A DNA stretch of 64,000 nt, taken from assembly GCA_963734475.1 (NCBI GenBank), contig CAVTHB010000003.1, forward strand, positions 60,390 to 124,389, in the 5' to 3' direction. This document shows positions 34,860 to 50,049 of this stretch, one piece after another (position 1 is the first letter of the stretch; each line of letters opens with the position of its first letter). This stretch comes from an uncultured Nitrospira sp. (GTDB lineage: Bacteria; Nitrospirota; Thermodesulfovibrionia; Thermodesulfovibrionales; UBA6898). The translations under genes and the position numbers were made by a program. The notes below the pieces were generated by a model. That model saw only the letters and a list, made by a program, of their open reading frames with translations. It did not search any database and was not told the origin of the DNA.

Positions 34860-35435
34860 ATGTCAAAAAAAGAAAGAAATCTGCCGAAGCCGGGGAAGAC
34901 CCCGTTCAGCAGAAAGAGACCTGTAAATGAGGGGCAGGACGATCTGCTGATGGCAGACCAGATGGCTATGGCTTCTGCAGAGGGAAGACTGGATGAGTAC
35001 CTTGAGCAGGAGATTCCGGAAGGCGAGTATGCAAAAAAACTTGCGAGGATGATGATGGGGATGACCGGGATAGTCCCCCCTGAAGAAGACCGTGCTGGAT
35101 CTTCTGAGGCAAGTGGAACAGAGAAGCCGGAGGAAATTAAAGCTGCTCAGACTGTGCCGGAAGATGTGGTAAGTGCTGTGCATGCCGGTGACGTAGAGAA
35201 ACTAAAGGGGCTGCTTGCGCGGGAGAAACAGCGAAGAGATCCTCAACAGGAGGATGAGACATACTCCGGGGAGAAGATCTTTGAAAAGCAGCCACAACCA
35301 GAAACTGTGCTTGAGAAGGCGATGCTCGATGAAGTGCTCAAGATTGCTGCTGATAACAGCCTGAACGTCGACTGGCTGATAGCCCGGGCGCTGAAGTTGT
35401 ATCTGGAGGAGTACCGGAAGACCGGACGGCTATGA
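34860..35435 (+). CDS. Hypothetical acidic protein
   Basis: ORF with an AGAGAGG RBS before the ATG at 34860. The track start is a TTG at 34839. No domain recognised. Confidence 0.45.
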   Translation: MSKKERNLPKPGKTPFSRKRPVNEGQDDLLMADQMAMASAEGRLDEYLEQEIPEGEYAKKLARMMMGMTGIVPPEEDRAGSSEASGTEKPEEIKAAQTVPEDVVSAVHAGDVEKLKGLLAREKQRRDPQQEDETYSGEKIFEKQPQPETVLEKAMLDEVLKIAADNSLNVDWLIARALKLYLEEYRKTGRL

Positions 35436-36665
35436 TTTTTGCTTTCTGCTCAGGGGCCGCCTGACGCCCAGGAATTGCATAACCTGCTGTTTGATCTCAA
35501 GATGATGGAGAGGGATGTTGGGCACGTCCCTGTTGCCGGGGACCGCTGGAATGTGAAGGAACAGCAGCTCTTTTTGCCTGCTTCTCAGCACACCCGCAAG
35601 TCCCTTCCTGTCTGCTGACTTAATGACGTTTCTTATGCCGAAACCTTTTGCCACAAGAGAGAGGTCGACACATGAGGCGGTCAGTGTAGACTGGTCGCCG
35701 GTAGAGCCGTATGCACTGTTGTCAATGGCAATGATCGTCAGGTTGGCGGGTGAAAAATGAGCTGTTGTAGCGAGAACTCCCGGGTTCATCAGAAGGCTTC
35801 CGTCTCCATCGATCACAACCACTTTTTTGTCCGTGGTCAGACTGAGGCCAAGGCCAATGGGCGTGGCCATGCCCATGCTCCCCAGCATATAAAAATTTGA
35901 CGGCTGGTGTTTTATGAAAAAAAGCTCCTTCGAAGGGATGCCGAGGTTGCAGACAACGACTTTATTGTCGAGATAGGGCGCAAGTGTGTGCAGTATCTCA
36001 AACCGTGTGTATTTGGGAGAAGCGCCGGATTGTTTATTTATTGTCATTCCGGCTTGTCCGGAATCCTTCTTTTTCAATGTGTTACAAAAACAGCCGATTC
36101 CGGACAAGCCGGAATGACAACCAAAAGAGGTCTTCTGTTTTATTGAAGGATTGATAAGCGGTTCCCTACCCCCTGTATGCGCCCATATCGCAGGACTGAG
36201 CAGAAAGGCATGCATCCTGTCCTTCGAATAAACATCTCTCAGCTTTTTCCCGATTATTGTAAAATCATCCCTGCTGCTGATTGTGGAATATGCTATCCCG
36301 GCCCCTCCGAGGATAAGCGGAAGTCGTTTGCCCATAGGCAGCTGGGCCTCGATTTTTTCCTTGTATACTCCCCGCTGGCTGACGAATATCGCAAGGGGAA
36401 GTTTATAAAACCCTGTAAGGGAGAGCAGCGCGTTTATCATATTTCCGACACCTGAACTCTGCACGAACATGGCGGCCCTCCGACCTGAAAGGGCGGCCCC
36501 TGCGCTTACACCTACCCCTTCCTCTTCCCTGGTGAGGGGCACGTGGAAAAATGCCGTGGCTACCATTTCAAGGAGATATTTGATCTTTTCGCACGGCAAA
36601 GAGGAGGTGAAATCAACACCAGCCTTTTTGAGTATCCCGATCAGTTCTTCTTCTGGGTATTGCAT
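35430..36665 (-). CDS. comDE: Fused sulfopyruvate decarboxylase (ComD-ComE type; phosphonopyruvate decarboxylase not excluded)
   Basis: The N-terminal half has VPLTREEEGVGVSAGAALSG...RGVYKEKIEAQLPMG (ComD-like). The C-terminal half has NFYMLGSMGMATPIGLGL...VIDGDGSLLMN...NSAYGSTG (ThDP-binding ComE-like). The two halves are joined by a linker of about 55 aa encoded by a palindromic repeat. Confidence 0.8.
   Translation of the reverse strand: MQYPEEELIGILKKAGVDFTSSLPCEKIKYLLEMVATAFFHVPLTREEEGVGVSAGAALSGRRAAMFVQSSGVGNMINALLSLTGFYKLPLAIFVSQRGVYKEKIEAQLPMGKRLPLILGGAGIAYSTISSRDDFTIIGKKLRDVYSKDRMHAFLLSPAIWAHTGGREPLINPSIKQKTSFGCHSGLSGIGCFCNTLKKKDSGQAGMTINKQSGASPKYTRFEILHTLAPYLDNKVVVCNLGIPSKELFFIKHQPSNFYMLGSMGMATPIGLGLSLTTDKKVVVIDGDGSLLMNPGVLATTAHFSPANLTIIAIDNSAYGSTGDQSTLTASCVDLSLVAKGFGIRNVIKSADRKGLAGVLRSRQKELLFLHIPAVPGNRDVPNIPLHHLEIKQQVMQFLGVRRPLSRKQKS
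36043..36118. repeat. REP-like double hairpin (GTCATTCC-stem-loop-GGAATSC type) inside the comDE coding sequence
   Basis: The arms gtcattccggcttgtccggaat and attccggacaagccggaatgac are perfect 22-bp inverted repeats separated by 32 bp. Each arm is itself a hairpin. Confidence 0.85.
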
Positions 36666-37897
36666 AAGATCTCCTCTATCTCGGTCATGGTTATCTTTTT
36701 AGATACAAAACGCGGCTCGACATTATATACTCTTTTCTCCCTTCCCAGCCTCTTTTCTCCGCCGCCCGTGATGTTTAACAGAATGGAATCGACACTACTG
36801 ACAGCCCTGATATTGACCGCTTCCCTCAGCGCGGCAACAGCAACGCCGGCTGCAGGCACGATATCTATGCCTTCTGTTTCCGCGAACAGGTCCATTCCGG
36901 AAAATACGTCTTCGTTTTTTATCCCGTACATCATGCCATTCGTTGCCTTGAGAGCATCATATAACCCGCCGACAAGGGAATATGCGGGATACCGGGTTGA
37001 CAAAACTCTTGTCGTAATTTTGCCGATCAGTTCAGGTCTTAGATCTTCAGGGGAAAGTTCGCGGCAGTCTTTCCACCAGGCCTTTACCATCGGCCCAAAG
37101 GGAAAATTCTGCGCCAGGTGCAGCCTGGGATGCCGCGACCCGAACCTGCCGTCACGAATAAACCGTTCCGACATCTCCCATACCCCGATGGCGCCTGTGC
37201 CGCTTCCAACCGCCTGGAAATAGTGGTCCGGGAGCCTGCCCATTTCAGAGACCGCTTTGAGCAATACCGCACCGAGGCCGTCTCTTTTTGCGATGTTCTT
37301 TACCCCTCCTTCAAAAGGGAAGCCATAGACGGCAGAGATCCTTTTTGCCACATCGATCGAATCCGCATAATCACCGTCGCCTACAGCAAGGGTAGGAACT
37401 CCGGAAGAGCTCTCCAGATACCACATCTCGGTAAGGCACATAGTCGGCACAACGATTATGACAGGAAAACCGGCTACTACGGACAGATGGGCAAAGGCCC
37501 TTGCTGTGTTTCCGGCAGAAGCTACGATCAGTCCTTTCACATCGTTTTCCATCGCATTCTGCATAACAACCGCGGCCTCGAATTCCTTGAATGTGCATGT
37601 TTCAAGCAGCGCCCCCATCTCAGGCCAGTAGCCGTTGAAGACTATATAGAGGTTTTCAAGGCCGAGATATGAGGAAAGACCCTTTGACTTGTATACGACA
37701 GGGCCTGCCTGGGCAAAGCCGTGGGTGTGGACCGGGAGCCAGTTGAAGCCCCATACCCCGTCGCCTCTGTCGTCACTGAACTCCCTCTCTTTGTAATCTG
37801 TTATGAGCAGGGCGTCTTTGCAGTGTTCGCAGAACGCGCAGAAGACGTTATTCAGTTCAGCGCCGCACTTTCTGCATCGTATGGAGAAATGGCTCAT
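36641..37897 (-). CDS. Threonine-synthase-family PLP enzyme, probably cysteate synthase
   Basis: It has an N-terminal 4-Cys zinc-ribbon-like CRKCG...CAFCEHC, a PLP-lysine context TCTFKEFEA, and a ThrC-like fold. It overlaps comDE downstream and the Fe-S gene upstream. Confidence 0.65.
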   Translation of the reverse strand: MSHFSIRCRKCGAELNNVFCAFCEHCKDALLITDYKEREFSDDRGDGVWGFNWLPVHTHGFAQAGPVVYKSKGLSSYLGLENLYIVFNGYWPEMGALLETCTFKEFEAAVVMQNAMENDVKGLIVASAGNTARAFAHLSVVAGFPVIIVVPTMCLTEMWYLESSSGVPTLAVGDGDYADSIDVAKRISAVYGFPFEGGVKNIAKRDGLGAVLLKAVSEMGRLPDHYFQAVGSGTGAIGVWEMSERFIRDGRFGSRHPRLHLAQNFPFGPMVKAWWKDCRELSPEDLRPELIGKITTRVLSTRYPAYSLVGGLYDALKATNGMMYGIKNEDVFSGMDLFAETEGIDIVPAAGVAVAALREAVNIRAVSSVDSILLNITGGGEKRLGREKRVYNVEPRFVSKKITMTEIEEILCNTQKKN

Positions 37898-39111
37898 GGG
37901 CTACCTCTTTCGATCAGGCCCGACAACAGCTCCATTATATCAACTATTTTGACCTGTCTTTCGTGTCCGATCAGCGCTTCGTTAACTTTAGCGTAGCATG
38001 CCGGACAGCTCAGGACAAGTTTATCAGCGCCTTTGGTAACAGCCTCGTCTATAGTCAATCTTCCCATAGCAATCGCATTTTCATGAAAGACCTTTCTCGC
38101 GGCCCCTCCGGAGCCGCAGCATCTGGAGTTTACACCATGTCTGTCGAACTCTAGCAACTCGACCCCGGGTATGCTGCCAAGAATCCTCCTGGGTTCCTCA
38201 ATGATGCCTACGCCCCTGCTCAGATAACAGGGGTCATGATAGATTATCTTCTCCTTCAATCCCTCGGTGAAGACTAGCCTTTTTTCCTGGATCGCATCTG
38301 AAACTATCTGCGAAATGTGTCTGACCTTGAAAGGAAGCTCCGAACCGTAGAAGGCAGGCCAGTCTCTGACCATGATATTAACGCAGCAGGGACATGAACA
38401 GATGAGGGTCTTCACTCCCCGTGCCATATATGCATCCACAAGCCGTTTTGTCAGGTCTTCAAGTATATCGAACTGTCCGGTAATAAAGAGAGGGAACCCG
38501 CAGCAGACCTCTTCTTCGGGCGGCAGCATCGTGAAGGGTGCTCCGATAGCATCGAGTACAAGCACATCCCCTCTAACCATGGGTTGTGCTTCATATGCTC
38601 CTGTACATCCGGCATAATAGCCCAGCTCAGCATTTTCCGATATAGTGACATTCTCCGGGAACCACGGCTTGAAGCGGTCTGCAGCAGGCTTTTTATAGGG
38701 ATTGCCTGTCTCCCTGACAGCACCTGGAATGTCTGCCTGCGGCCCTATGGGGCCTAGCCCCCTGCGTACCATCTCGGCCCTCAGCATCGGCCATAGCCGC
38801 TGCGTAAAAATGCCGACAGAGCAGTTCTGTCCGCAGGCCCCGCAGGTGGTGCATTCATAAACCGCTTTTGTGAAATCCTCGAGCAGTCTTCTGTCAATCT
38901 GTCCGGGGCCGAAAAGTCTGGCCTTCAGTCCGTCTGTCGCCCGGATGAATTCCCTGAAAAGGCGTATCTTTTCAGGAGGCGAAACCGCTTGATTCGGCGC
39001 TACCTCCTGGACCGGGCAGTGCTTCAGACACTCGCCGCAGAGGGTACAGGCGTCGAGTTCCATTAGCTGCATAGGGGTCAACCCCCGTGTAAAGGAATCC
39101 TTATTTTTCAT
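37894..39111 (-). CDS. HdrD/DsrK/GlpC-family Fe-S oxidoreductase (2x[4Fe-4S] + 2 CCG domains), copy 1
   Basis: The ferredoxin motifs are CTLCGECLKHCP and CTTCGACGQNC. The CCG motifs are EVCCGFP and SRCCGSGG. Confidence 0.85.
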   Translation of the reverse strand: MKNKDSFTRGLTPMQLMELDACTLCGECLKHCPVQEVAPNQAVSPPEKIRLFREFIRATDGLKARLFGPGQIDRRLLEDFTKAVYECTTCGACGQNCSVGIFTQRLWPMLRAEMVRRGLGPIGPQADIPGAVRETGNPYKKPAADRFKPWFPENVTISENAELGYYAGCTGAYEAQPMVRGDVLVLDAIGAPFTMLPPEEEVCCGFPLFITGQFDILEDLTKRLVDAYMARGVKTLICSCPCCVNIMVRDWPAFYGSELPFKVRHISQIVSDAIQEKRLVFTEGLKEKIIYHDPCYLSRGVGIIEEPRRILGSIPGVELLEFDRHGVNSRCCGSGGAARKVFHENAIAMGRLTIDEAVTKGADKLVLSCPACYAKVNEALIGHERQVKIVDIMELLSGLIERGSP

Positions 39112-39838
39112 TCATCAGTGACCTGACCGCCTTCTCCCTCTGGCGCGCATCGAGCAGCGAGACCGGTGCCGCTGCTATGTGCGTGGGAAGATACGCAAAA
39201 ATTATGAGAAAAAGGACAAAGTGCATTATAAAAAGAAGGCTGTGAGGCGCCTCGGCCGGTCTGAAAGTGACCATGCCCAGAGCGAACCATTTGATTCCCG
39301 CGAGATCGGGATGGAACCATACTTTCATCAGCAGGCCACTGATGCCGGACAGGAGCAGGAGGGCAAGGAGGAAAAAATTTGAGCTTGATATATAACTTTT
39401 TTTCTCGATGACCAGCTTTGCTATGAAGATGTATATGAGGGACAGCGGCAGGAGATATTGCGCGATAATGACAGGTGTCTGAAGCGCAAAAATGCAGGAA
39501 GGTACAGGTTCCAGAAAAAAGCGCAGATGCCGGACCATTACGAGAACAAGGCACATATGGAAAAGCCATTCCCCGAACCAGAGGAAGGCGTTCGAGAAGA
39601 AAAGCCTCCTGAGTAACAGGATATCGACCGCGGTTGATGCAGCAACGGAGAGGGTGATGCCGGACCGCGCGGCAGCAGCAGGGAGGACCTCATCTTTTCT
39701 GAGCAAAAGGGATATTTTCTGGATATAGGAGACGATAAAGAGGACCATAACCAGATAGTAACCCCATGTCAGAACAATGCCCATATCGGCGTACCCTTTC
39801 GGAGGTCTCATATGGCTAGAGCCTGGAAAAGGCATCAA
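39101..39838 (-). CDS. NarI/DsrM/HdrE-like integral membrane (putative di-heme b) subunit, copy 1
   Basis: Five to six TM helices carry conserved His residues (FHMCLV..RHLRFF, IMHFV..YLPTH). It overlaps both flanking Fe-S genes. Confidence 0.7.
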   Translation of the reverse strand: MMPFPGSSHMRPPKGYADMGIVLTWGYYLVMVLFIVSYIQKISLLLRKDEVLPAAAARSGITLSVAASTAVDILLLRRLFFSNAFLWFGEWLFHMCLVLVMVRHLRFFLEPVPSCIFALQTPVIIAQYLLPLSLIYIFIAKLVIEKKSYISSSNFFLLALLLLSGISGLLMKVWFHPDLAGIKWFALGMVTFRPAEAPHSLLFIMHFVLFLIIFAYLPTHIAAAPVSLLDARQREKAVRSLMNEK

Positions 39839-41069
39839 TTATGGCCTCTGCTGACACATCCGGGCATACAGACCCTACGAGAACCTCATTACTATGATAA
39901 ACCTTTATCGGTGAGGAAATCTCGTCGACAGCGTGCTGCAGCCCTATAGCGCAAGTCTGACACGGGGTAACGACAGCTTCGGAAGCCGTGGCCTCCGCTT
40001 CCCTTATCCGGCCTGCTGACATCTTCAACTGGACCTCGGGATAGGCGAGTTTCAGTCCGCCCCCCATGCCGCAGCAGGAAGAAAACGACCTGTGCCTCGG
40101 CATCTCTACCAGCCTTATCCCGGGTATTGCCCTGAGTACCTGTCGCGGTTCATCGTATATATTATTATGGCGGCCCAGATGGCACGGGTCATGGTAGGTG
40201 ATTGTCAGCGGCACCCCCCGCCTCAGCAGCAGCCGTCCATCGTGAATCAGGATGTTCAGGAACTGTGTGAGGTGTAGTACTTTAGGCGCATCCGCCCAAA
40301 TACCAGCATAGTCAGAGTGGAGCCCCTTATAGCAGCCGGCACACGAAACTACAAGGGTCTTTATTCCCATCTGTCTTATCATTTCAGCCCTTAGCCATGC
40401 CTCCCGCAGGAAATCACCGTCCCCCATGCGTCTTAATTTGCTTGCACAGCAGGGTTCGTCATTGCCGAGGATCGAGAAGTCTATCCCTGCCTCCTGGAGC
40501 AGACGGGCAGACTGTACGGCAACCGCCTGCTGTGACGGGTCATAGCTGGCGGTACACCCCGCGAAGTAGAGGACCGGGGCGGGATGCTCTTTCCAGAGGC
40601 GGAGAGGCTTCAGGAGAAATCCTGATTCCCATGCCTTATCGGCCCAGAGTCCGCGCTCCTGCTGAGGTCTGCTGTAAGAGTTGTTGAACTCCTTGATGGC
40701 AGAGAGCTGTTTAATCTGGCCTGGGGGCTGAGGGAACCCCGCCTTTACGAGGGAAGCCCTTGACTGTTCCCAGAGTTCAGGCGTATTGATGCGCACCGGA
40801 CAGACAACATGACATTGTCCGCAGGCAGAACATTCGTACAGGCTGTCAATGAATTCCTGCTGTTCCGTGTTGTCGAGACTGTCCCGCACAATCTTCCGGA
40901 GGAACTTTATCTTAGACCGTGCCGTAACCAATTCTCTGCTGTCCCGGGCATAGACCGGACACCACTGCCGGCATTCACCGCAGCGGGTGCAGGCATCCAG
41001 CTCAACGAGCTGTCTCCATGTCAGTCCTTCAGCGATCCGGTCGCCCTGTGTTTTGAGATGTCCGGCCAA
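39816..41069 (-). CDS. HdrD/DsrK/GlpC-family Fe-S oxidoreductase, copy 2
   Basis: The ferredoxin motifs are CTRCGECRQWCP and CSACGQCHVVCP. The CCG motifs are EPCCASK and SSCCGMGGG. Confidence 0.85.
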   Translation of the reverse strand: MAGHLKTQGDRIAEGLTWRQLVELDACTRCGECRQWCPVYARDSRELVTARSKIKFLRKIVRDSLDNTEQQEFIDSLYECSACGQCHVVCPVRINTPELWEQSRASLVKAGFPQPPGQIKQLSAIKEFNNSYSRPQQERGLWADKAWESGFLLKPLRLWKEHPAPVLYFAGCTASYDPSQQAVAVQSARLLQEAGIDFSILGNDEPCCASKLRRMGDGDFLREAWLRAEMIRQMGIKTLVVSCAGCYKGLHSDYAGIWADAPKVLHLTQFLNILIHDGRLLLRRGVPLTITYHDPCHLGRHNNIYDEPRQVLRAIPGIRLVEMPRHRSFSSCCGMGGGLKLAYPEVQLKMSAGRIREAEATASEAVVTPCQTCAIGLQHAVDEISSPIKVYHSNEVLVGSVCPDVSAEAIIDAFSRL

Positions 41070-41878: not shown

Positions 41879-42202
41879 TCAATCGCCCGTGTCTCTTTCA
41901 AAGACTATACTGACGTCCCTGGGCACAGCAAGCCCTGCCTCAACTTCCAGCGCCTTGAGAATGCCTGACGGGACAGGACAGGCAACATGCTTCAGACAGG
42001 TTGCCCCCTTTGTGTATACCGGGTTGTCAAGGACCCTCTTGAAGGCGTCCATAAAGTTTAATTCAGGCAACTCCGTTCCCAGCTTCTCCGCCATTTTGCA
42101 TTCGGAGGTTATAGTCAGTGTGAAAGTCTTCTTGTCCTTCTTTTTCACCACTACCGTTACCAGCATTCCGCAGGCACCGGGCTGTATCTTTATTTTCGCC
42201 AT
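41879..42202 (-). CDS. Small 4-Cys hypothetical protein
   Basis: 107-aa ORF with Cys at positions 11, 35, 69 and 75. It sits between the RACo gene and the first membrane subunit. No family recognised. Confidence 0.5.
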   Translation of the reverse strand: MAKIKIQPGACGMLVTVVVKKKDKKTFTLTITSECKMAEKLGTELPELNFMDAFKRVLDNPVYTKGATCLKHVACPVPSGILKALEVEAGLAVPRDVSIVFERDTGD

Positions 42203-44478: not shown

Positions 44479-45132
44479 CTACAGGCTTATTTTATTGCCT
44501 CCTCCGTTTTTTCTTGAATAGGGGCAGACTGTCACGCAGAAGCCGCAGTTAGGCTTGCCTTCAAGACTCTGCCGTTCCTGTTTGAGCGCTGAGCATTTGT
44601 CATAGAAAACCATCTCCTTGCGAGGCTCGTTTACAGACCAGTGGTCACCCCTGATCGCACCTGAAGGACAATGCGTTACACAGAGATCGCAGTCCCCGCA
44701 CTCAGACTCCCGCATCGGCTCATCAGGATCCAGCGGTGCATTGGTCAGCACGGTTGCCCAGGAGAGTTTTGAGCCGTATTGCCGGTTGATCACAAGCCCG
44801 TTCTTCCCGACCCACCCGAGACCCGAACAGGTGGCTGCTGTCTTGTGGCAGAAGAGTTTGTAGAGCTTTGTTATGAGCTTGTCTTTCCTCCTGTCTGAAT
44901 CAGGGGGTATGACGAGATTCAGGTAGCCTCTTGATCTCAGCCAATCCTCAGCCAGTCCCTGAAGTTTTAAGAGCATTTCAACGGTTTCACGGTTCAGACT
45001 CCTGTTGACTGCTATTGCCACACCGCGGTTCAGGTGAAGTATCTCGCTCGACAGAGCTTTGGTAATGTCGCCTATGCCGACGAGGGTAGCACCCTCCTTT
45101 TTCAGATACTGCTTGAGCATGTCTGAATTCAC
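44479..45132 (-). CDS. QueG/RdhA-related 2x[4Fe-4S] protein (short form)
   Basis: The Fe-S motifs are CGDCDLCVTHCP and CGFCVTVCP. The preceding region resembles the epoxyqueuosine-reductase core (GLGWVGKNGLVI). Confidence 0.6.
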   Translation of the reverse strand: MNSDMLKQYLKKEGATLVGIGDITKALSSEILHLNRGVAIAVNRSLNRETVEMLLKLQGLAEDWLRSRGYLNLVIPPDSDRRKDKLITKLYKLFCHKTAATCSGLGWVGKNGLVINRQYGSKLSWATVLTNAPLDPDEPMRESECGDCDLCVTHCPSGAIRGDHWSVNEPRKEMVFYDKCSALKQERQSLEGKPNCGFCVTVCPYSRKNGGGNKISL

Positions 45133-45135
45133 GGT

Positions 45136-45822
45136 TTATTGCTTCGCCGCCTTCTCGTCTCTGAGCTTCTTGAGGAACGCGACCATCTTGATTGCCTCCT
45201 TGAGAGCGTTGCTGGCATCCTCTGCATAACCGTCAGCGCCCCACTTGTCGGCAAGATCCTTGGAAGTCGGAGCTCCACCGATCATGACCATGCAATTGGG
45301 GTTCTTTTCCTTGATCTTTTCGATCACCTTCGGCATACCGACCATGGAAGTCGTCATCATTGCAGAGAGGCAGACAAGGTCTGAGTCAGTCTTGAGCTGT
45401 TCTTCAACGAACTTGTCCAGAGGGACATCCCTGCCAAGGTCATAGACATTGAAGCCTGCAACGTCAAACATCATCTTGACGAGGTTTTTGCCGATATCAT
45501 GCACATCCCCTTCAACAGTCCCGATGACAACAGAACCCTTTACGCCAAGGTCCATCTGCTTGCAATGCGGCTTAAGGATCTCAAGACCTGCGTAGAGGGC
45601 GTCGGCGCACATGAGGATCTCGGGTACGAAATATTCCTGCGCCTCAAAAAGCCGTCCGACTTCCTCCATGCCTGACACCAGACCGTCAAAGATGGCCTCG
45701 TTGGCGTCCAGACCAGCCTCAAGCGCCTCGTTAGCGCCTTCCTTGCACGCGTCCTCATCATACTGTATGACGCCGTTTCTCAATTTCTCGAAGATTTCTT
45801 TCTTTTTAGTTTCGTCTGCCAT
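45136..45822 (-). CDS. Corrinoid (cobalamin-binding) methyl-carrier protein, MtaC/MtbC-like
   Basis: It has a B12-binding cap helix bundle and a Rossmann domain with the DxHxxG motif (GDVHDIGKN). Confidence 0.9.
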   Translation of the reverse strand: MADETKKKEIFEKLRNGVIQYDEDACKEGANEALEAGLDANEAIFDGLVSGMEEVGRLFEAQEYFVPEILMCADALYAGLEILKPHCKQMDLGVKGSVVIGTVEGDVHDIGKNLVKMMFDVAGFNVYDLGRDVPLDKFVEEQLKTDSDLVCLSAMMTTSMVGMPKVIEKIKEKNPNCMVMIGGAPTSKDLADKWGADGYAEDASNALKEAIKMVAFLKKLRDEKAAKQ

Positions 45823-46850
45823 TACTTTTTACCTCCATAATGAATAGTTTCATCCAACATAGCCTTCATATTCTGTGGCGGCACTGTGGGCCAGATGTCG
45901 CATCCAGGCCAGACTGCGCTAACACCGTCATCAATGCATTTCCTGACAGTCGACCTGACAAGCTCCTCGCTCCCTGAGACGAGAACATTGTAGGCGTCCA
46001 TATTGCCAAAGATAAGCGCGTCCTTGCCGAGTTTCTTCCTGGACTCCGCGACATCGTTTTTCTGTTCAACGCTTATGGCTGTGGGACCTGCGTCCATCAT
46101 GGACGTGACAATGTCGTTCGTCTTGCCGCAGATGTGGAGCACAGAGAAGACCGATATTGACTTGATCACCTTTTGGAGCGGCGGCAGGATGAGACTTTTA
46201 AAGACCCTCGGGCTCAGGACATCACTGGTTGCTCCCATTTCCCTGACCGTGATATAGTCCACGCCCGCCTTCTCATATTCCTTTGCGGCAAGTATGAGCG
46301 CGTCGGCACAAATATCCAGAAGCTTCGCGACCTTGTCCGCCTTCTTGAAGGAGAGCTTAAGCAGGTCGTTCAATTCCATGATCTGGCCCGCAAGTGTGAA
46401 GGGGCCAAGAACGTACGTGCCGACAGCGACATCATTGCCGATGTCAGCCTTAAGCAGTCGTATAGCTTCCCTCATCATCGGGAGCCTTCCTTTTTCAGAA
46501 AAGCCGTCAGGAATCTTTATGTTGTCCATTTCAGCTTCATTGTGGATGAGTTTTTCCTTGATAGTCGGATAGAGGATGCCCTCTGCGTGGGGATAGACAT
46601 TGATCATACAACCCAGAGCCTCCGCCTCGACACAGAGGTCAACAGGCACAACCCCGCACTCATAGCCGAAGAGCTTGTAGGTGGTTGCAGCGGTCTCTGC
46701 CATCTGCTTTGCATCAAGGTGGATGCCGGCGAATTTGAAGCCGAGCTTGTTAATACCGGTCTCGGTTATGTTGCCCATCCCGCTGAAGCAGGGGACCCGG
46801 TCGATTGGCTCGCCCTTGAAGAGTTTCAGCACTCTTTCTCTTGAATTCAT
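45822..46850 (-). CDS. UroD-family methylcobamide methyltransferase (MtaA/MtbA/CmuA-like) with a Zn-thiol motif
   Basis: It has MtaA-like N-terminal RVL..FKGEPIDRVP, the VEAEALGC motif, and candidate zinc ligands LHICG ... WPGCD. Confidence 0.85.
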   Translation of the reverse strand: MNSRERVLKLFKGEPIDRVPCFSGMGNITETGINKLGFKFAGIHLDAKQMAETAATTYKLFGYECGVVPVDLCVEAEALGCMINVYPHAEGILYPTIKEKLIHNEAEMDNIKIPDGFSEKGRLPMMREAIRLLKADIGNDVAVGTYVLGPFTLAGQIMELNDLLKLSFKKADKVAKLLDICADALILAAKEYEKAGVDYITVREMGATSDVLSPRVFKSLILPPLQKVIKSISVFSVLHICGKTNDIVTSMMDAGPTAISVEQKNDVAESRKKLGKDALIFGNMDAYNVLVSGSEELVRSTVRKCIDDGVSAVWPGCDIWPTVPPQNMKAMLDETIHYGGKK

Positions 46851-46875
46851 AAATTACTGTCTCCTTTCAAATCTC

Positions 46876-47829
46876 TCATTTTTTCTTTCTGCCCCCGCCT
46901 GTCTGAAGCTTTCCGATAAAGTCGGCAAAGTATTTTCTTATAGGGAGGTTTTCATTTTCAAAGATATCGCCTGTCTCCTCATAGACCAATGTTGAGAGGA
47001 GCATATGAGCGCTCGCAACAGCAGGAAAGACTCTGGGGGCTGTAACCGCAGGTCCGCAGAAGTTAAAGTCGCTCCATAAGGCAGACGCCATCCCCTGCAC
47101 TACCGCGTCCATGGCCTTGAACCCGTCGAGACCCCATTTAGCCTTAATCTCACCCCACATGTGAGTCCCGTTTGAATATGCGCCGCCGCAGGGCAGTCCG
47201 TGTTTCTCCTTTATGAGTCTGTTCGCGACAAGAGAAAAAGAAGTGGAAGGCAGGTTCATGACAGAGGTGTCGATGATCGTAGTTTCAAAATCGCCGGCGC
47301 CCTGGGCAAGGAGTGCTTCGAGTGACTTCACCCTGCCCGCAGGGGTCTGGTCCTGGTCGTCAAAGGCCTGTATAACAACATGTTTGATCCCGAGGTCCTT
47401 CAGCTTCCGGACCTGGCCCTTTATGTCCTTGTCCCAAGGGGTTATGCTGTTGTACAGGAATTTGTCCTGGACCCCGAGTTTTGCTACGTACTCCGTTGCC
47501 TTGGCCCTCTGTTCAGCCACCCACATGTCTATGCCAAAGGGCATGTCAGTTGTCTCGAGGTAAAAATCTATATAAATCTTCGCTTCCTCGGGGGAATTTG
47601 CCACCATCGCCACCATTCCCGGGATGCCTGTCACCTTTGCCATTTCTTCCTGTTTTCTTATAATTTCGATTGCACGCTGACGGTCAAAATTGCCCTTCCT
47701 GTCCTGGACTATCTTGTCCTTGTTATGGAACATGGAAGATATCATCAGCGGTGGATTCTCTCCCGGCTGCCCTCCTATCTTTATGTTGTTGAGGCTGAAA
47801 ACCTTCTGTTCTTTTTCAAATCTGAACAT
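46876..47829 (-). CDS. MtrH-family methyl-pterin:corrinoid methyltransferase
   Basis: Length and sequence pattern (IGGQPGENPPLMISSMFH...) are as in tetrahydromethanopterin S-methyltransferase subunit H homologues. Confidence 0.8.
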   Translation of the reverse strand: MFRFEKEQKVFSLNNIKIGGQPGENPPLMISSMFHNKDKIVQDRKGNFDRQRAIEIIRKQEEMAKVTGIPGMVAMVANSPEEAKIYIDFYLETTDMPFGIDMWVAEQRAKATEYVAKLGVQDKFLYNSITPWDKDIKGQVRKLKDLGIKHVVIQAFDDQDQTPAGRVKSLEALLAQGAGDFETTIIDTSVMNLPSTSFSLVANRLIKEKHGLPCGGAYSNGTHMWGEIKAKWGLDGFKAMDAVVQGMASALWSDFNFCGPAVTAPRVFPAVASAHMLLSTLVYEETGDIFENENLPIRKYFADFIGKLQTGGGRKKK

Positions 47830-47927
47830 TACATCTCCTTTTTACGGGGATTATGATAATATAAAATATGCGTTTAACTCAGGGCAGCTTACCTTCGACT
47901 GAAGGTCGCTGCCTTTCTTTTTTTCAC

Positions 47928-48014
47928 CAGGTTCAGGCTAAGGCTAAGGTTGAGGGAAAAACTCAGGAGCATACTTGTCTTTCTTTACCTCTACCTTAAC
48001 CTCAGCCCTTGATC
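47928..48014. repeat. Palindromic element with hexamer-phased GGCTAA/AGGTNA arms (family D)
   Basis: The arms are ggttcaggctaaggctaaggttgaggg ... ctttacctctaccttaacctcagccc. Confidence 0.6.
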
Positions 48015-48019
48015 TTATT

Positions 48020-48466
48020 CTAAAATACTCCGTGATCGAACTTCGGAGGAGGCAGGTACTCCCATTTCTCGCCTTTCCGGTATTTCGCCTCGATATCGAG
48101 ACATTTCAGGGCATACTCAAAGGCATACGGGATGCCCGGTCCGCCGGGAACAAAGCCGGCCAATATCATGCCTACAGACGCGGCTTCGAATATCTCACCT
48201 GTAGTGGCGCCTGCGTTGATTGCGGGAATGACATGGATGATGCAGCGGGGCGAACAGTATGCGACTCCGCCGGACATGAACATCAGTTCCTTCACCTTCC
48301 TTGAAAGTGCGCCGTCCCCAAAGATGCTGGCATAGAAGTCAGCAAAGGTCCTGCCGGGTTCAGGGGTGACGGTATTGATGATCTGGAACATCCTGGGAAC
48401 AAATCCGCACTGTTTTTTCATGTACTCATTAACTTCTTCTACAGTCATTTTCTTTGCATCTGACAT
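48020..48466 (-). CDS. Carboxymuconolactone decarboxylase (AhpD-like) family protein
   Basis: CMD-family pattern with CSPRC. A GGAGGA RBS precedes the ATG at 48466. The track start is 48517. Confidence 0.7.
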   Translation of the reverse strand: MSDAKKMTVEEVNEYMKKQCGFVPRMFQIINTVTPEPGRTFADFYASIFGDGALSRKVKELMFMSGGVAYCSPRCIIHVIPAINAGATTGEIFEAASVGMILAGFVPGGPGIPYAFEYALKCLDIEAKYRKGEKWEYLPPPKFDHGVF

Positions 48467-48609
48467 TTTCTTTCCTCCTTCTGCTTTGTTTCCGGCCTGA
48501 GGCCGCAATTGTTTCAAAAACCTAAAATTCCTATTTGCACCTCCCCGTGCAATGGACTTCGTAACGCCCTTTTTTACCTTTTATTCACCTCCCATCAGGG
48601 TTAATAATT

Positions 48610-49656
48610 TCAATACTTCCAGTTCAGCGCCACGTCGTGGAACTTCATGATATTCTCATAGGGAATCGTCGGTGGTATATCGCAGCCAGGCACGAGGATG
48701 AACCCTTTTGGATCCTTGCCTACTGTCTCGATTATCTCCCTGCAGGCAGCTTCGACCTCTGTCACTGTCTTGTTGAGCAGCACGTGGACAGGCGCAACAT
48801 TGCCTCCGAATGACATCTTCCCGGAAAGGGCTTCTTTCGCTTTTGCAATATCGACCTTCTGGTCAAAAAATATGGTGCTGCAGCCCGTCTGCGGGAAGAG
48901 GTCAAGGCGATCGCTGGTATTGCCGCAGATATGGAGTATTGTATGCACGCCCTTTGACTTTGCCCAGTCACTCATCTTCTTAAGCGGGGGCACAGCGAAT
49001 TTTGCCATCTGCTTGGGATTGATCAGGTCGCCCGAGGCAGTAGGATCCGCAATGCTGAGGGCCTCAACCCCGTCAGTGACAAGGGGTTCATAGAGCTTGA
49101 TGAGCAGATCAGCGCAGAAGTCGACCATCTTTTCGACAAAGGCAGGTTTTTTAAAGGTATATTTCATGAAGGCCTCCTCGCCCACAAAACGGGCGGCCAG
49201 TGTGAATGGTCCCCAGCAGGTCATGGTCACGAGGTACTTGTCGCCGATTTTTTCTTTGACCTTTTTCGTTGCCTCCATCACGTTTAGGACAACAGGGTCC
49301 CGGAAGATGTCCTCCATATCGAGTTTTGCGAGGTCTTCTTCAGAGTTTACGATATGTGTGGTCATGTCAGGAGCGCCTATCTCACGGTATTTGACCCCAA
49401 CACCTTGCTTTCTGCCAAGCGCGATAGCATGGAAGTTATTAAACCCGGACCCGACATAAATAATGTCTGACCTGATCTTTTCAGCCTCGGCAACGCACAT
49501 TTCGACATTCTTCTCTACATTGGTTGCGAGCTCTTCAAAGGATGTGCCGTAGTCCTTGATGGACCACATGCCGCCTCCAAACAAGGTGACGGGGACGCGC
49601 TCGGTCTTCTCCATAGCAAAGGCCTTCAGGATTGTTTCTCTAGGTGTCAAAGCCAT
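48610..49656 (-). CDS. UroD-family methylcobamide methyltransferase (MtaA/MtbA-like) with a Zn-thiol motif, second copy
   Basis: It has the same fold pattern, with candidate zinc ligands LHICGNT ... VPGCD. Confidence 0.85.
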   Translation of the reverse strand: MALTPRETILKAFAMEKTERVPVTLFGGGMWSIKDYGTSFEELATNVEKNVEMCVAEAEKIRSDIIYVGSGFNNFHAIALGRKQGVGVKYREIGAPDMTTHIVNSEEDLAKLDMEDIFRDPVVLNVMEATKKVKEKIGDKYLVTMTCWGPFTLAARFVGEEAFMKYTFKKPAFVEKMVDFCADLLIKLYEPLVTDGVEALSIADPTASGDLINPKQMAKFAVPPLKKMSDWAKSKGVHTILHICGNTSDRLDLFPQTGCSTIFFDQKVDIAKAKEALSGKMSFGGNVAPVHVLLNKTVTEVEAACREIIETVGKDPKGFILVPGCDIPPTIPYENIMKFHDVALNWKY

Positions 49657-49668
49657 TTTTTCTCCTCC

Positions 49669-50019
49669 TTAGGTTATGTGTGTTTTGTTGCTCTGAGGCA
49701 TGGTGTATAAAATGTCCCTGAACTCTTCAAGATCAACAGGAGCGCTAAGGCTCAGGGTGCCTGTCTTGAATTCCGGTTTTCCTGTGACGATTATGAGCAT
49801 GTCCGGAGAAACCGCCTTCATGATCTGCACTGCGTCTTCCACCGGAAGCCCGAAAGATCTGCCGTCGATGATTACGGCATAGTAGGGACTTTTCAGGATC
49901 ATCTGTACGGCAAGGGCAAGGTGGTCGGCTATCTCTACCTCATGGCCTTTGTCACGCAGAATGCCATAAAGGCTTTTTACAAGGATAGGGTCGTGTGTAC
50001 ATAAAAGTACTTCTTCCAT
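49669..50019 (-). CDS. Stand-alone receiver-like (probably pseudo-receiver) domain protein
   Basis: It has REC topology (VLLCTHD..., AVIIDG, LIIVTG). The acidic pair is reduced to T-H-D and the conserved Lys is replaced (SAP instead of KP). Confidence 0.6.
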   Translation of the reverse strand: MEEVLLCTHDPILVKSLYGILRDKGHEVEIADHLALAVQMILKSPYYAVIIDGRSFGLPVEDAVQIMKAVSPDMLIIVTGKPEFKTGTLSLSAPVDLEEFRDILYTMPQSNKTHIT

Positions 50020-50033
50020 GGCTCAATCATATC

Positions 50034-50049
50034 AGCAATTCCAGTGCCA
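50034..50049 (-). promoter_or_regulatory. Candidate sigma-54 promoter (TGGCAC-N5-TTGC)
   Basis: The minus strand reads TGGCACtggaaTTGCTgatatgattgagccATG. The -24/-12 core is perfect. The start codon of the REC-like gene lies only 15 nt after the -12 C. Confidence 0.4.

Follow-up and report, generated by a model that had tools for sequence, protein, structure and literature searches.

We identified a block of 15 co-oriented minus-strand genes at positions 35430–50019 of the window, the 64-kb stretch of DNA from an anaerobic Nitrospirota bacterium that was analysed as a whole, and a literature search found no published description of this supercluster. The original prediction had recognised the block with 14 genes; the open reading frame listing gives 15, with the seven genes of a first proposed operon all matched (44479–50019) and a second (35430–44226) that was likewise matched and holds eight. 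Overlapping junctions, announced at 4–49 nt, have lengths of 1, 4, 11, 23, 25 and 49 nt, and the non-overlapping ones are spaced by 3–32 nt, with larger gaps of 92, 190 and 252 nt. Families were assigned by profile searches against Pfam and NCBIfam with curated cut-offs, which reproduced all earlier family labels except those of the REC-like protein and a "small 4-Cys protein". The block and its promoter comprise:

50034..50049, minus strand: sigma-54 (-24/-12) promoter, TGGCACTGGAATTGCT, 15 nt upstream of the REC-like start codon
49669..50019, minus strand: REC-like small protein (116 aa), first gene of the block
48610..49656, minus strand: UroD2, MtaA/CmuA-like zinc methyltransferase (348 aa; PF01208, 198 bits)
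48020..48517, minus strand: CMD/AhpD-like protein (PF02627, 27 bits)
46876..47829, minus strand: MtrH-family methyl-corrinoid:pterin (tetrahydrofolate, THF) methyltransferase (PF02007, 170 bits)
45822..46850, minus strand: MtaA1, MtaA-like His-Cys-Cys zinc methyltransferase (PF01208, 231 bits)
45136..45822, minus strand: corrinoid (B12-binding) protein (PF02607 and PF02310)
44479..45132, minus strand: QueG/RdhA-like 2x[4Fe-4S] ferredoxin-domain protein (Fer4_16)
42235..44226, minus strand: RACo-type ATP-dependent reductive activator of corrinoid proteins (four RACo domains)
41879..42202, minus strand: DUF6951 small metal-binding protein (PF22263, 104 bits)
41021..41860, minus strand: NarI2, NarI/QmoC-like membrane cytochrome b subunit, partner of HdrD2 (PF02665, 38 bits)
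39816..41069, minus strand: HdrD2, HdrD-like, 2x[4Fe-4S] and two CCG domains
39101..39838, minus strand: NarI1, DsrM/NarI-like di-heme cytochrome b, partner of HdrD1
37894..39111, minus strand: HdrD1, HdrD-like with Hdr-type catalytic CCG motifs (two CCG domains and Fer4_8)
36641..37897, minus strand: cysteate synthase (phosphoserine + sulfite to cysteate; TIGR03844 equivalog)
35430..36665, minus strand: fused sulfopyruvate decarboxylase ComDE (TIGR03845 and TIGR03846)

The promoter fits the sigma-54 consensus TGGCAC-N5-TTGCT with zero mismatches and is the single such match in the window, situated at the 50049 end of the block; the motif likewise precedes the REC-like gene in locus L035. The REC-like product had no Pfam or NCBIfam match and its orthologue in L002 matched PF00072 weakly; the position of the gene is conserved across relatives. 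Further features surround the block:

33779..34735, plus strand: SsuA-like (NMT1_2) binding-protein homologue (PF13379, 51 bits)
34839..35435, plus strand: acidic 198-aa protein, convergent neighbour, downstream of ComDE in most loci
50308..50820, minus strand: OsmC-family protein, upstream of the promoter (PF02566)
53328..54206, plus strand: CobW/COG0523-type metallochaperone GTPase (PF02492 and PF07683)
55198..56178, minus strand: sigma-54 activator with a truncated receiver domain
56394..58136, minus strand: GAF-PAS histidine kinase

The acidic neighbour gave no family match in the profile searches. The SsuA-like protein scores 92 bits against SsuA_fam, below cut-off, and its N-terminus, inspected by eye, has no obvious signal peptide; in about 10 loci, L029 among them, a homologue again adjoins cysteate synthase or ComDE, and binding proteins encoded inside the cluster in Nitrospirota exceed the cut-off of the aliphatic-sulfonate SsuA model (193–197, cut-off 163.5). 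The OsmC-family neighbour recurs in L002, L039, L040, L052, L076, L085 and L127, and in most contigs anchored on CMD the CobW-type and REC-like genes are divergently oriented. The sigma-54 activator and histidine kinase (55198..58136) are candidate regulators of the block; sigma-54 activators also lie near the cluster in L029, L039, L040, L071, L075, L093, L098 and L112.

Family-level matches assign MtaA1 and UroD2 to the thiol/selenol (de)methylating branch of the UroD superfamily with a His-Cys-Cys zinc site. MtaA1 scores 254 against the "methylcobalamin:coenzyme M methyltransferase" subfamily NF004889 (cut-off 244), 244 against MtaA_Meth (cut-off 400) and 170 bits against PDB 4ay7, and its zinc ligands are invariant. 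UroD2 scores 182 against TIGR01463 (cut-off 235), has MtaA (4ay7) as its best PDB match and an invariant HxC...C motif, and is 42–43% identical to orthologues in L042, L043 and L127, each of which adjoins CMD. The expectation that these enzymes are thiol-type was not contradicted: both have the zinc site typical of thiol methyltransferases, and their best solved relative is MtaA and not an O-demethylase. At the same level, the MtrH-family enzyme (NF002142, 325, cut-off 287; MtgA model, 156), the corrinoid protein (TIGR02370, 212, cut-off 215) and the RACo protein (Fer2, linker, middle and ASKHA domains all detected; AcsV, 474 bits) match a bacterial-type methyl-corrinoid:THF system. The QueG and RDH models cover the Fe-S region of the ferredoxin-domain protein alone (residues 96–209). 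CMD shows the highest conservation in the block (83–98% identity in Nitrospirota, 60–74% in other lineages) and has an invariant SPRC..H motif and second Cys; its translation probably begins at the ATG at 48466, giving 148 aa. The "4-Cys" protein is DUF6951, with a Cys3-His set (C11, C35, H72 and C75 invariant), and accompanies the methyl-transfer module in L041–L043 and L045.

The ThrC-like protein is a cysteate synthase at equivalog level, as had been proposed, with 460 bits against TIGR03844 (cut-off 325) and at most 77 bits against threonine synthase models. ComDE passes both sulfopyruvate decarboxylase models (TIGR03845, 174.5, cut-off 148; TIGR03846, 222.8, cut-off 221.5) and fails the phosphonopyruvate decarboxylase model (190, cut-off 312). 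On these family assignments, the two enzymes would convert phosphoserine and sulfite to sulfoacetaldehyde; as in Methanosarcina, the transamination between their steps is encoded elsewhere. The HdrD1 and cysteate synthase genes share 4 nt, the stop codon of the former lying over the start of the latter.

HdrD1 and HdrD2 are about 30% identical, contain complete Hdr-type CCG motifs and are each paired with a NarI-like cytochrome b, which at family level makes both pairs HdrDE-like complexes with Hdr-type CCG cysteines and a di-heme cytochrome b. The best NCBIfam match of HdrD1 is TfrB (179 bits; DsrK, 77), and EtfD (9OJN, 91 bits), a carrier of electrons from ETF to menaquinone, is its best solved relative. 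EtfD has lost the Hdr-type catalytic cysteines that HdrD1 and HdrD2 keep: both CC pairs are present in HdrD1, where the EtfD counterparts are CT and His, and HdrD1 has a CC pair and Cys242 in place of Thr539 and His583 of the non-catalytic EtfD. HdrD1 orthologues with 42–47% identity occur in L043, L126 and L127, and those of HdrD2 are common in Thermodesulfovibrionales and, in L039 and L040, are located close to the same supercluster. NarI1 (DsrM model, 68.7 bits, below cut-off) has five hydrophobic segments, and His 94, 104, 206 and 220 are invariant in 32 orthologues; NarI2 scores 38.6 bits against QmoC, and its gene varies in position among relatives.

Conservation of the juxtaposed operons, a point on which the original prediction had hinged, was confirmed in dozens of relatives. 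Of 29 species-level Nitrospirota genome loci in which cysteate synthase served as the anchor and at least 5.7 kb lay upstream of it, 28 contain the methyl-transfer module, and the arrangement is found in all 16 metagenome contigs that are anchored on CMD and extend as far as cysteate synthase. This recurrence is far beyond chance, and the flanking genes are not conserved between loci. The supercluster is vertically conserved in Thermodesulfovibrionia-like Nitrospirota. Twelve genes are contiguous in L002 (gaps of at most 116 bp). In two of the 16 contigs (L080, L113) cysteate synthase–ComDE directly follows DUF6951 and has no adjacent NarI1–HdrD1. L003 links NarI–HdrD–cysteate synthase–ComDE to acyl-carrier, ketoacyl-synthase and radical SAM genes, not to methyl-transfer genes, and L029 contains cysteate synthase–ComDE with neither methyl-transfer nor Hdr genes.

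Outside Nitrospirota, the Chloroflexota-type contig L126 has a complete xcbABCDE cluster, in which XcbA, ComA and XcbD score above cut-off; the gene immediately upstream of it encodes an HdrD1 orthologue (45% identity), and a CMD orthologue is nearby. This bacterial coenzyme M (CoM) pathway is non-homologous to the cysteate synthase–ComDE route. In L043, MtrH and MtaA1 of the orthologous methyl-transfer module form a single fused protein (MtrH::MtaA1), the module encloses an SsuABC-like transporter, and the locus also encodes an HdrD1 orthologue (47% identity). An SsuABC-like transporter is also embedded in the module of L042, and in L127 the module is followed by a NarI::HdrD fusion adjoined by a QueG-like ferredoxin orthologue (40% identity). 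In M. acetivorans, an SsuABC transporter takes up CoM and cs-comDE adjoins the CoM synthase gene (PMC12068725).

Judging from gene context, which supplies all of the evidence, we put at about even the chance that all parts of the supercluster concern one small sulfonate thiol, most likely CoM (2-mercaptoethanesulfonate) or a very close relative, which is favoured as the shared metabolite because of the Nitrospirota linkage, the SsuABC importers and the xcb context of L126. The block is predicted to be under sigma-54 control. Sulfoacetaldehyde would be converted to CoM through thiolation by an enzyme outside the cluster, or alternatively through addition of sulfide and subsequent reduction; some relatives would import the same sulfonate by the embedded transporter. 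The methyl-transfer module would move methyl groups between THF and the thiol via the corrinoid protein, UroD2 and CMD may serve a second methylated sulfur substrate, and the HdrDE-like complex would couple the thiol/disulfide pair to the menaquinone pool, so that the thiol is kept or recycled.

Several observations count against CoM. Profile searches detected no known thiol-forming enzyme, ComF/COG1900 and XcbA included, in the cluster or in any of 128 Nitrospirota sequences examined, and no CoB or MCR genes were seen in the context. The ComE margin is about 1 bit, and MtaA1 and UroD2 both fall below the MtaA and MtbA equivalog cut-offs. The nearest out-of-clade relatives of MtaA1 are bacterial (Desulfotomaculum 57%, Anaerolineae 55%, Dehalococcoidales 43%), and neither the Desulfotomaculum module (L041) nor the Dehalococcoidales-like one (L045) is accompanied by a sulfonate or Hdr gene in the neighbourhood covered. 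Moving a methyl group from a thioether to a pterin is endergonic, so that both the direction of the proposed transfer and its benefit are questionable. EtfD is an HdrDE-like protein in a conduit role unrelated to disulfides, and for the related MtaA-like Mlp proteins, methyl-selenide or methyl-sulfide substrates have been proposed (PMC10418091). The sulfonate-thiol, corrinoid and disulfide system originally envisaged is partly supported: it gains from the ThrC-like, UroD and juxtaposition results and from the xcb and SsuABC context, and is unproven because the cluster has no thiol-forming enzyme, the MtaA1 relatives are bacterial, EtfD-like roles exist and CoB/MCR context is absent.

A possible but unlikely alternative is that the methyl-transfer module catabolises or scavenges small methylated sulfur, selenium or halide compounds (methanethiol, DMS, MMPA, dimethylselenide or methyl halides, for example) and delivers the methyl group to THF via MtrH. 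CoM would not be a substrate, and cysteate synthase, ComDE and the Hdr-like modules would be co-regulated and chemically separate, e.g. as a low-molecular-weight thiol redox buffer with OsmC and CMD. The L041 and L045 modules, with UroD-family enzymes, corrinoid protein, RACo, MtrH and DUF6951, fit this, as do the proposed action of the His-Cys-Cys Mlp proteins on selenide or sulfide, the same architecture in the CmuAB, mec cassette, Mto and Mtg systems, and the MtrH::MtaA1 fusion as an ordinary substrate-side/THF-side (MT1::MT2) fusion. OsmC and AhpD-like proteins belong to thiol-peroxidase-type families, and comDE over-expression is reported to give methanogens protection from oxidative stress (PMC12713407). 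Left unexplained, however, are the sulfonate genes within the same transcription unit at about 45 independent loci, their position directly after DUF6951 in L080 and L113, the SsuABC-type importers embedded in orthologous modules of other phyla, and CMD, a gene of the methyl-transfer module, beside the xcb cluster in L126.

We regard it as rather improbable that the NarI/HdrD modules are EtfD/EMO-type quinone-linked electron conduits, bringing electrons to a soluble cluster partner or taking them from it, instead of disulfide reductases. Such a conduit could reduce a sulfoacetaldehyde–sulfide adduct (a thioaldehyde) to the thiol as a CoM-synthase substitute, much as the bacterial CoM pathway ends in thioaldehyde reduction by an Fe-S protein (PMC9457059), or could supply RACo and the QueG-like ferredoxin for corrinoid activation. 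The EtfD relationship, the translational coupling of HdrD1 and cysteate synthase, the lack of any other thiolating or reducing enzyme and the ferredoxin beside the L127 fusion speak for it; the retained catalytic cysteines and the L080 and L113 arrangements speak against it. Menaquinol, moreover, has little reducing power for a step at low potential. L126 encodes XcbA alongside an HdrD1 orthologue, and HdrD1 is therefore not simply a replacement of the final reductase. That the sulfonate product is instead a non-thiol (isethionate, taurine, sulfoacetate or a sulfonolipid head group), with the methyl-transfer linkage reflecting regulation or genomic inertia in one clade, is very improbable: just two pathway enzymes are present and L003 and L029 fit such a product, but HdrD1 is tied in L126 to a second, unrelated pathway (Xcb) that yields CoM, the Xcb and archaeal routes have no intermediate derived from sulfoacetaldehyde in common (isethionate or taurine, for example), both the thiol-type zinc methyltransferases and the CCG proteins of Hdr type indicate thiol chemistry, and profile searches found no reductase, aminotransferase or acyltransferase for alternative sulfonate fates in the cluster.

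A system built around CoM or a close relative could on balance serve to catabolise methylated sulfur, to shuttle methyl groups or to act as a redox carrier, and the supercluster suggests that a cofactor chiefly familiar from methane-producing archaea has a bacterial use not described before.

The ORF table gave an unbroken minus-strand run of fifteen genes from 50019 to 35430, which bears out the co-oriented run of the original prediction and corrects its count of fourteen. Junctions within the run are overlaps of 1–49 nt or a few bases of spacing, and only three gaps are sizeable: 252 nt between the corrinoid activator RACo and the ferredoxin, 190 nt between MtrH and the AhpD-like protein CMD, and 92 nt between CMD and the UroD-family methyltransferase UroD2. 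The block had been read as two operons; the 252-bp gap behind that reading is present, but it is missing in relatives such as the Nitrospirota locus L002, in which twelve genes are contiguous with gaps of at most 116 bp. The end coordinate originally assigned to the block is that of a sigma-54 promoter consensus, which has one zero-mismatch match in the window, at 15 nt from the ATG of the first gene. Genes for a sigma-54 activator and a GAF-PAS kinase lie 5–8 kb upstream of the block. A sigma-70 promoter and terminator pattern scan gave no match above chance level for the block, and the window had no Rfam match to an RNA family, riboswitch or B12 element.

50034–50049, sigma-54 promoter consensus
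50019 to 35430, minus strand, block of fifteen genes with the REC-like gene first and ComDE last

The gene calls made from the raw sequence were reproduced with Pfam and NCBIfam models, i.e. fused ComDE, cysteate synthase, two HdrD-like proteins each with a NarI/DsrM-like partner, RACo, a QueG/RdhA-like ferredoxin, a corrinoid protein (CorP), MtrH, a CMD/AhpD-like protein and two UroD-family proteins. The same models described RACo as a four-domain protein and identified a DUF6951 protein in the block. Elsewhere in the window, the following genes were recorded, of which the first three look split or truncated and suggest indel errors (e.g. of a long-read MAG) or pseudogenes.

30595–31984, class II aminoacyl-tRNA synthetase, present as two overlapping ORFs
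26609–29124, Cache-HAMP-PAS sensor, apart from its HATPase-REC part
55198–56178, sigma-54 activator with only the end of a receiver domain and no HTH match
8544–10240, minus strand, DUF3641 radical SAM protein (9311–10240), of the family linked to arsenosugar biosynthesis, then a DUF3047 protein (8544–9314)
54414–54959, minus strand, nitrite/sulfite-reductase-like ORF of 181 aa (NIR_SIR_ferr and the start of NIR_SIR) between CobW and a sigma-54 activator, possibly truncated, with a homologue (29% identity) near cysteate synthase-ComDE in the related locus L029
32863–33744, plus strand, GroES (Cpn10) domain fused to a Lys/Ala/Pro-rich low-complexity tail of about 190 residues, conserved in the related loci L004 and L005
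51428–52078, plus strand, almost entirely Gly/Tyr/Ser/Arg repeats (GGQYSGGS, GGHYYGG) without family match, with a hydrophobic N-terminus that is possibly a signal peptide
11969–16348, plus strand, 1459-aa protein with only C-terminal PPDK_N and PEP-utilizer mobile domains and no family match in its first ~1000 residues; a relative adjoins the supercluster in the related locus L039

The two sulfonate biosynthesis genes were assigned at equivalog level. The ThrC-like protein is a cysteate synthase, as had been proposed: it scored 460 bits on TIGR03844 (cut-off 325) and at most 77 bits on threonine synthase models. The fused ComDE passed both of its models, TIGR03845 (alpha) with 174.5 bits (cut-off 148) and TIGR03846 (beta) marginally, with 222.8 bits (cut-off 221.5), and stayed under the phosphonopyruvate decarboxylase cut-off (190 versus 312.5), in line with the predicted sulfopyruvate type. 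The archaeal enzyme ComF (MMP16), a COG1900 protein (COG1900d plus a ferredoxin domain) whose gene adjoins cs-comDE, may be compensated for, when lost, by another COG1900 enzyme, L-ASST (PMC12068725); no PF01837/COG1900 match was found in the block or the other scanned window proteins. All-against-all ORF clustering of the loci for a thiolation enzyme returned only the genes already known, housekeeping neighbours and shadow ORFs on the antisense strand, and tblastn found no homologues of xcbA–E in the window or the Nitrospirota loci. A DsrE-like sulfurtransferase-family gene was observed near the block, often with a divergent OsmC-like gene (L029 6518–11954; L037 about 12754–13542; upstream regions of L080, L094, L112, L113 and L119), and in L029 and L037, two MAGs labelled Rokubacteria, ComDE is directly followed by a ThiF/MoeB-like E1 gene. 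The DsrE-like and ThiF/MoeB-like genes hint at, but do not prove, a sulfur relay that might serve the missing thiolation step.

Both UroD-family proteins, MtaA1 and UroD2, combine the UroD fold (PF01208) with H-x-C...C zinc ligands, and the ligands (H239, C241 and C317) are invariant in 48 sequences. A His-Cys-Cys site marks the S/Se-methyltransferase branch of the superfamily, the cysteines being replaced in O-demethylases (Kountz and Balskus, PMC10418091). The best solved relative of both proteins is MtaA of M. mazei (4ay7; 170 and 106 bits), and no O-demethylase-type or CdmB-like structure was matched even at E ≤ 10. On the His-Cys-Cys sites and the MtaA match, a Mec, Cdm or O-demethylase identity of the pair was rejected; an O-demethylase pathway had been offered as an alternative in the original prediction. 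MtaA1 scored 244 on MtaA_Meth (cut-off 400) and 164 on MtbA (cut-off 600), UroD2 scored lower on both, and only MtaA1 passed the broad subfamily model NF004889 (254 versus 244). The MtrH-family protein scored 170 bits on PF02007 and 325 on NF002142 (cut-off 287). The most conserved protein of the block is CMD, in which SPRC..H and a distal Cys are invariant and which weakly matches AhpD-like models associated with arsenosugars and selenoproteins. Its interpretation as a CxxxC disulfide reductase was rejected because the first Cys of CSPRC varies outside the Nitrospirota. A search of 50%-identity representatives, followed by name look-ups, gave bacterial nearest out-of-clade relatives of MtaA1 (Desulfotomaculum, 57%; Anaerolineae, 55%; Desulfobacterales, 47%; Dehalococcoidales, 43%), and a recent transfer of the methyltransferases from methanogens is therefore unsupported.

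The two HdrD-like proteins, HdrD1 and HdrD2, share about 30% identity and consist of Fer4_8 and two CCG domains with two [4Fe-4S] motifs and both CC pairs kept; the full cysteine set, including the CC pair, is conserved across 43 sequences. The best NCBIfam model for HdrD1 is TfrB, a subunit of CoM/CoB thiol:fumarate reductase (179 bits, cut-off 385), and matches to HdrB structures are weak. Among solved structures, mycobacterial EtfD (9OJN) is closest to HdrD1; this HdrDE-like protein is a non-catalytic electron conduit, with C-T (Thr539) in place of the CC pair and a His completing cluster D2. Residue-level alignment places C203-C204 and C242 of HdrD1 at these positions, and the window proteins are therefore Hdr-type and not EtfD-type; an EtfD/EMO identity was rejected on the retained CC motif, and the block has no ETF genes. 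The earlier description as HdrDE/DsrMK-like stands for the Hdr-type CCG protein with its cytochrome b partner and fails for DsrMK, whose models scored far under their cut-offs (DsrK, 77 and 64 versus 400; DsrM, 69 versus 300). The partner of HdrD1, NarI1, matches the DsrM/NarI family and has five hydrophobic segments and four invariant His, the pattern expected of a di-heme cytochrome b. NarI2 is less clear, with two invariant His in nine sequences.

Numerous cysteate synthase homologues at 70–89% identity were found, with named sources among Nitrospirota, Thermodesulfovibrionales, 'Ca. Sulfobium' and Dissulfurispiraceae MAGs, and the closest species representative has 94% identity. No dsr genes are present in the window; the host lineage is putatively sulfate-reducing, judging by the names of its relatives and a paper on Ca. 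Sulfobium (PMC5812927). A synteny map (tblastn of the 15 proteins against 35 species-representative loci) gave the order REC-like, UroD2, CMD, MtrH, MtaA1, CorP, ferredoxin, RACo, DUF6951, NarI, HdrD, cysteate synthase, ComDE in 28 of the 29 loci with at least 5.7 kb upstream, down to a cysteate synthase identity of 65%. Independently, a CMD-anchored scan of metagenome contigs yielded 217 relatives, and all 16 contigs that were long enough reached cysteate synthase, 14 via NarI1-HdrD1 and two straight from DUF6951. The predicted gene arrangement is thus conserved in relatives and, as the flanking genes vary among loci, the block itself is maintained. The CMD-alignment scan retrieved only close Nitrospirota relatives and did not widen the phylogenetic range.

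Within this frame, the NarI2/HdrD2 pair is mobile: it is in line with the other genes in the window, in L004 and in L010, and inverted in L019 and L033; in L039 it diverges from cysteate synthase-ComDE, and in L040 it lies upstream of the methyl-transfer genes. Recurrent neighbours are OsmC, a CobW-type metallochaperone, sigma-54 activators, an SsuA-like protein and an acidic 198-aa protein. An SsuABC-type transporter lies within the block in five Nitrospirota loci (L019, L027, L033, L037, L039), and the three binding proteins tested (L027, L033, L039) scored 193–197 bits on the SsuA aliphatic-sulfonate model (cut-off 163.5). Uptake of CoM by an SsuABC-type system is known from M. acetivorans (PMC12068725). 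In L001, the closest metagenome relative (cysteate synthase identity 89%), FolD (methylene-THF dehydrogenase/cyclohydrolase; 7053–7997) is inserted between DUF6951 and NarI, which ties the block to THF-bound C1 metabolism. Cysteate synthase-ComDE occurs without methyl-transfer genes in L003 and L029. The L003 cysteate synthase is identical to that of L002 while the methyl-transfer genes are missing upstream, a layout that may reflect either a genuine rearrangement or a chimeric assembly. B12-binding radical SAM enzymes precede the NarI-HdrD pair in L003 (1–6577) and L040 (2721–7079), accompanied in L003 by rSAM/SPASM, acyl-ACP-type (AMP-binding, ACP) and ketoacyl synthase genes and in L040 by a SAM methyltransferase/DUF2284 protein.

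Outside the Nitrospirota, parts of the block recur in other combinations. A Desulfotomaculum locus (L041) and a Dehalococcoidales-like locus (L045) contain only UroD paralogues, CorP, RACo, MtrH and DUF6951, which shows the methyl-transfer module to be a bacterial unit that is complete by itself. An Anaerolineae locus (L042) encodes orthologues of UroD2 (42%), CMD (73%), MtrH, MtaA1, CorP, RACo and DUF6951, with an SsuABC-like transporter and a DsrE-like gene embedded. The same methyl-transfer set with an embedded SsuABC-like transporter is found in L043, assigned to the Chloroflexota by its HdrD relatives, in which MtrH and MtaA1 are fused and, ~4.5 kb downstream of CorP, genes for Rieske, cytochrome b, cytochrome c, NarI, an HdrD1 orthologue (47%) and cytochrome c follow. 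The related locus L127 encodes OsmC, CMD (74%), UroD2 (43%), another UroD, an MFS transporter, CorP, RACo, MtrH, MtaA1 (50%), ferredoxin (40%) and a NarI::HdrD fusion (42% to HdrD1). The fusions MtrH::MtaA1 (662 aa; L043 9900–11888) and NarI::HdrD (689 aa; L127 10001–12070) support physical and functional pairing of the partners. On the Chloroflexota-type contig L126, genes for Rieske, cytochrome b, cytochrome c, NarI, an HdrD1 orthologue (45%) and cytochrome c are directly followed by a complete xcbABCDE set, for which XcbA family, ComA and XcbD scores exceed their cut-offs (388 versus 150, 305 versus 280, and 644 versus 600) and XcbC and XcbE are best matches under their own cut-offs. The other strand carries a CMD orthologue (60%) and a DsrE-like gene. 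This stretch beside xcbABCDE/HdrD1 (11551–15083, minus strand) comprises a variant radical SAM gene, DUF2325, the DsrE-like gene, the CMD orthologue, DUF2292 and the start of an Oxidored_nitro gene. Nitrogenase-like methylthio-alkane reductases cleave methyl thioethers, and a link of this nitrogenase-like gene to methyl-CoM-type substrates is conceivable.

The block resembles the CoM methyl-transfer and HdrDE system of methylotrophic Methanosarcinales (MtaA/MtbA/MtsA, Mtr/MtrH, HdrDE and type-2 CoM biosynthesis by cs-comDE-comF) in its equivalog-level cysteate synthase and ComDE, His-Cys-Cys MtaA-like enzymes, MtrH-family and corrinoid proteins, an HdrD-like protein with two catalytic-type CCG domains and a di-heme cytochrome b, and an SsuABC-type transporter tied to sulfonate. 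It differs in being bacterial and presumably THF-based, with menaquinone presumably in place of methanophenazine, in a soluble MtrH that is paired (fused in L043) with an MtaA-like enzyme instead of belonging to a membrane Mtr complex, and in a bacterial RACo instead of RamA as activase. No ComF, MCR or CoB genes were seen with the block, and its MtaA-like proteins are under the MtaA and MtbA equivalog cut-offs and have bacterial nearest relatives. With MtgABC (glycine betaine), CmuAB (chloromethane), the mec dichloromethane cassette and archaeal MtoABCD it has in common an architecture in which a methyltransferase on the substrate side and an MtrH-family pterin methyltransferase are combined with a corrinoid protein and a RACo-type activase; in contrast to these, it contains two MtaA-like thiol-type enzymes, a highly conserved CMD-family protein, DUF6951 and a QueG-like ferredoxin, and it alone is tied to HdrDE-like modules and to the biosynthesis or import of a sulfonate. 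Type 1 mlp clusters of anaerobes likewise combine several His-Cys-Cys MtaA-like proteins, a corrinoid protein and a bacterial RACE/RACo-type activase and were proposed to function in methyl-sulfur or methyl-selenium metabolism (PMC10418091). By their published description they typically lack a THF methyltransferase, whereas the block has MtrH, and the mlp preprint (PMC10418091) is silent on Nitrospirota, Hdr-like genes, sulfonate and CoM biosynthesis. A bacterial use of CoM, as proposed for the block, is known from the CoM-dependent alkene/epoxide metabolism of Xanthobacter autotrophicus Py2 with its XcbABCDE pathway, and xcbABCDE adjoins the HdrD1 orthologue in L126; the window, however, has the cysteate synthase-ComDE of the archaeal phosphoserine route and no epoxyalkane:CoM transferase or 2-KPCC context, and the organisms are anaerobic. 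The Xcb and archaeal routes are non-homologous and have no common sulfoacetaldehyde-derived intermediate, yet both end in CoM (PMC9457059). DsrMK and EtfD/EMO also combine a NarI-like cytochrome b with an Fe-S subunit that has CCG domains and are coupled to the menaquinone pool, but neither is tied to sulfonate biosynthesis or corrinoid methyltransferases, and the catalytic CC motif lost in EtfD is retained in HdrD1 and HdrD2.

Four independent properties describe the metabolite on which these genes converge: it is derived from sulfoacetaldehyde via cysteate synthase/ComDE or is the Xcb product, it is an aliphatic sulfonate importable by an SsuABC-type system, it is the partner of His-Cys-Cys thiol-type corrinoid methyltransferases, and it is the partner of Hdr-type CCG enzymes. 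CoM fits each of them, and an explanation of the block centred on CoM is therefore the best supported, with about an even chance of being correct. The block would make CoM or a very close sulfonate thiol, which relatives would import. MtrH, CorP and MtaA1, which are adjacent everywhere and fused in part in L043 (MtrH::MtaA1), are proposed to form a soluble, RACo-maintained bridge between methyl-THF and the thiol; UroD2 and CMD may serve a second methylated sulfur substrate or the same one, and HdrD/NarI would link the menaquinone pool to a thiol/disulfide pair. The family identities, the conservation of ligands and the linkage of the genes are direct observations; which thiol is involved, in which direction methyl groups flow, what the disulfide partner is and how the cell benefits are inferred. 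Speculative roles are the catabolism of methylated thiols with CoM as carrier, or a CoM redox couple that accepts electrons at approximately the methyl-THF/methylene-THF potential.

Several observations keep our confidence from rising further: related modules occur without sulfonate genes nearby (L041, L045), cysteate synthase-ComDE occurs without methyl-transfer genes (L003, L029), the MtaA-like proteins miss the MtaA/MtbA equivalog cut-offs, and related Mlp proteins were proposed to act on selenide or sulfide (PMC10418091). A CoM-independent methyl-sulfur, methyl-selenium or halide system next to a separately acting sulfonate/thiol module is a rival explanation; with the sulfonate genes in the conserved order of 28 of 29 loci, we consider it unlikely. 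HdrDE-like proteins can also be plain electron conduits, and an electron-conduit or biosynthetic role of the Hdr-like modules would account for them, an explanation that appears quite improbable beside the intact CC pairs. The lack of an aldehyde-to-thiol enzyme in the block and its recurrent neighbours likewise limits our confidence. A non-thiol sulfonate product is very improbable beside the thiol-type methyltransferases. The explanation centred on CoM can be extended to a methanogen-like, MCR-free CoM metabolism in anaerobic Nitrospirota (Thermodesulfovibrionia-like) and some Chloroflexota, in which CoM would be made by the cysteate synthase-ComDE or Xcb route or imported, would carry methyl groups between methylated sulfur substrates and THF via a soluble MtrH/MtaA/corrinoid 'mini-Mtr', and would form a disulfide coupled to the quinone pool by an HdrDE-type complex. 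Taken jointly, these elements make a tentative and somewhat doubtful proposal.

In the established view, CoM serves as a cofactor in archaea that metabolise methane or alkanes and in a few aerobic bacteria that oxidise alkenes. Both the component families and a bacterial methyl-transfer architecture of the MtrH type are already known (Mtg, Cmu, mec, Mto), and bacterial MtaA-like type 1 mlp clusters were described before, without MtrH, sulfonate, CoM-biosynthesis or Hdr components. A full-text literature search found no paper in which Nitrospirota or Chloroflexota are connected with cysteate synthase, ComDE or CoM, and the Ca. Sulfobium paper (PMC5812927) does not mention corrinoid, methyltransferase or heterodisulfide genes. 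What distinguishes the block is the combination of CoM-precursor biosynthesis, methanogen-type methyltransferases and an HdrDE-like complex in one conserved, apparently co-transcribed unit, carried by widespread Nitrospirota of wetland, soil, sediment and groundwater. In Chloroflexota there is a convergent link to the unrelated Xcb pathway. There is a substantial chance that it marks a new bacterial role for CoM, and it defines testable proteins (MtaA1, UroD2, CMD, HdrD1/NarI1). If so, the C1 and sulfur metabolism of anaerobic bacteria would involve CoM, or a close analogue, in a role that has gone unrecognised, with bearing on methylated-sulfur handling by lineages named as sulfate reducers and on the function of many bacterial MtaA-like genes. 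It would also inform the evolution and cross-domain exchange of 'methanogen' modules and affect the reading of CoM-related genes as methanogen markers in metagenomes. Should the MCR-free CoM metabolism prove true, CoM would gain a third role in biology, and bacteria would have a new respiratory thiol/disulfide couple.
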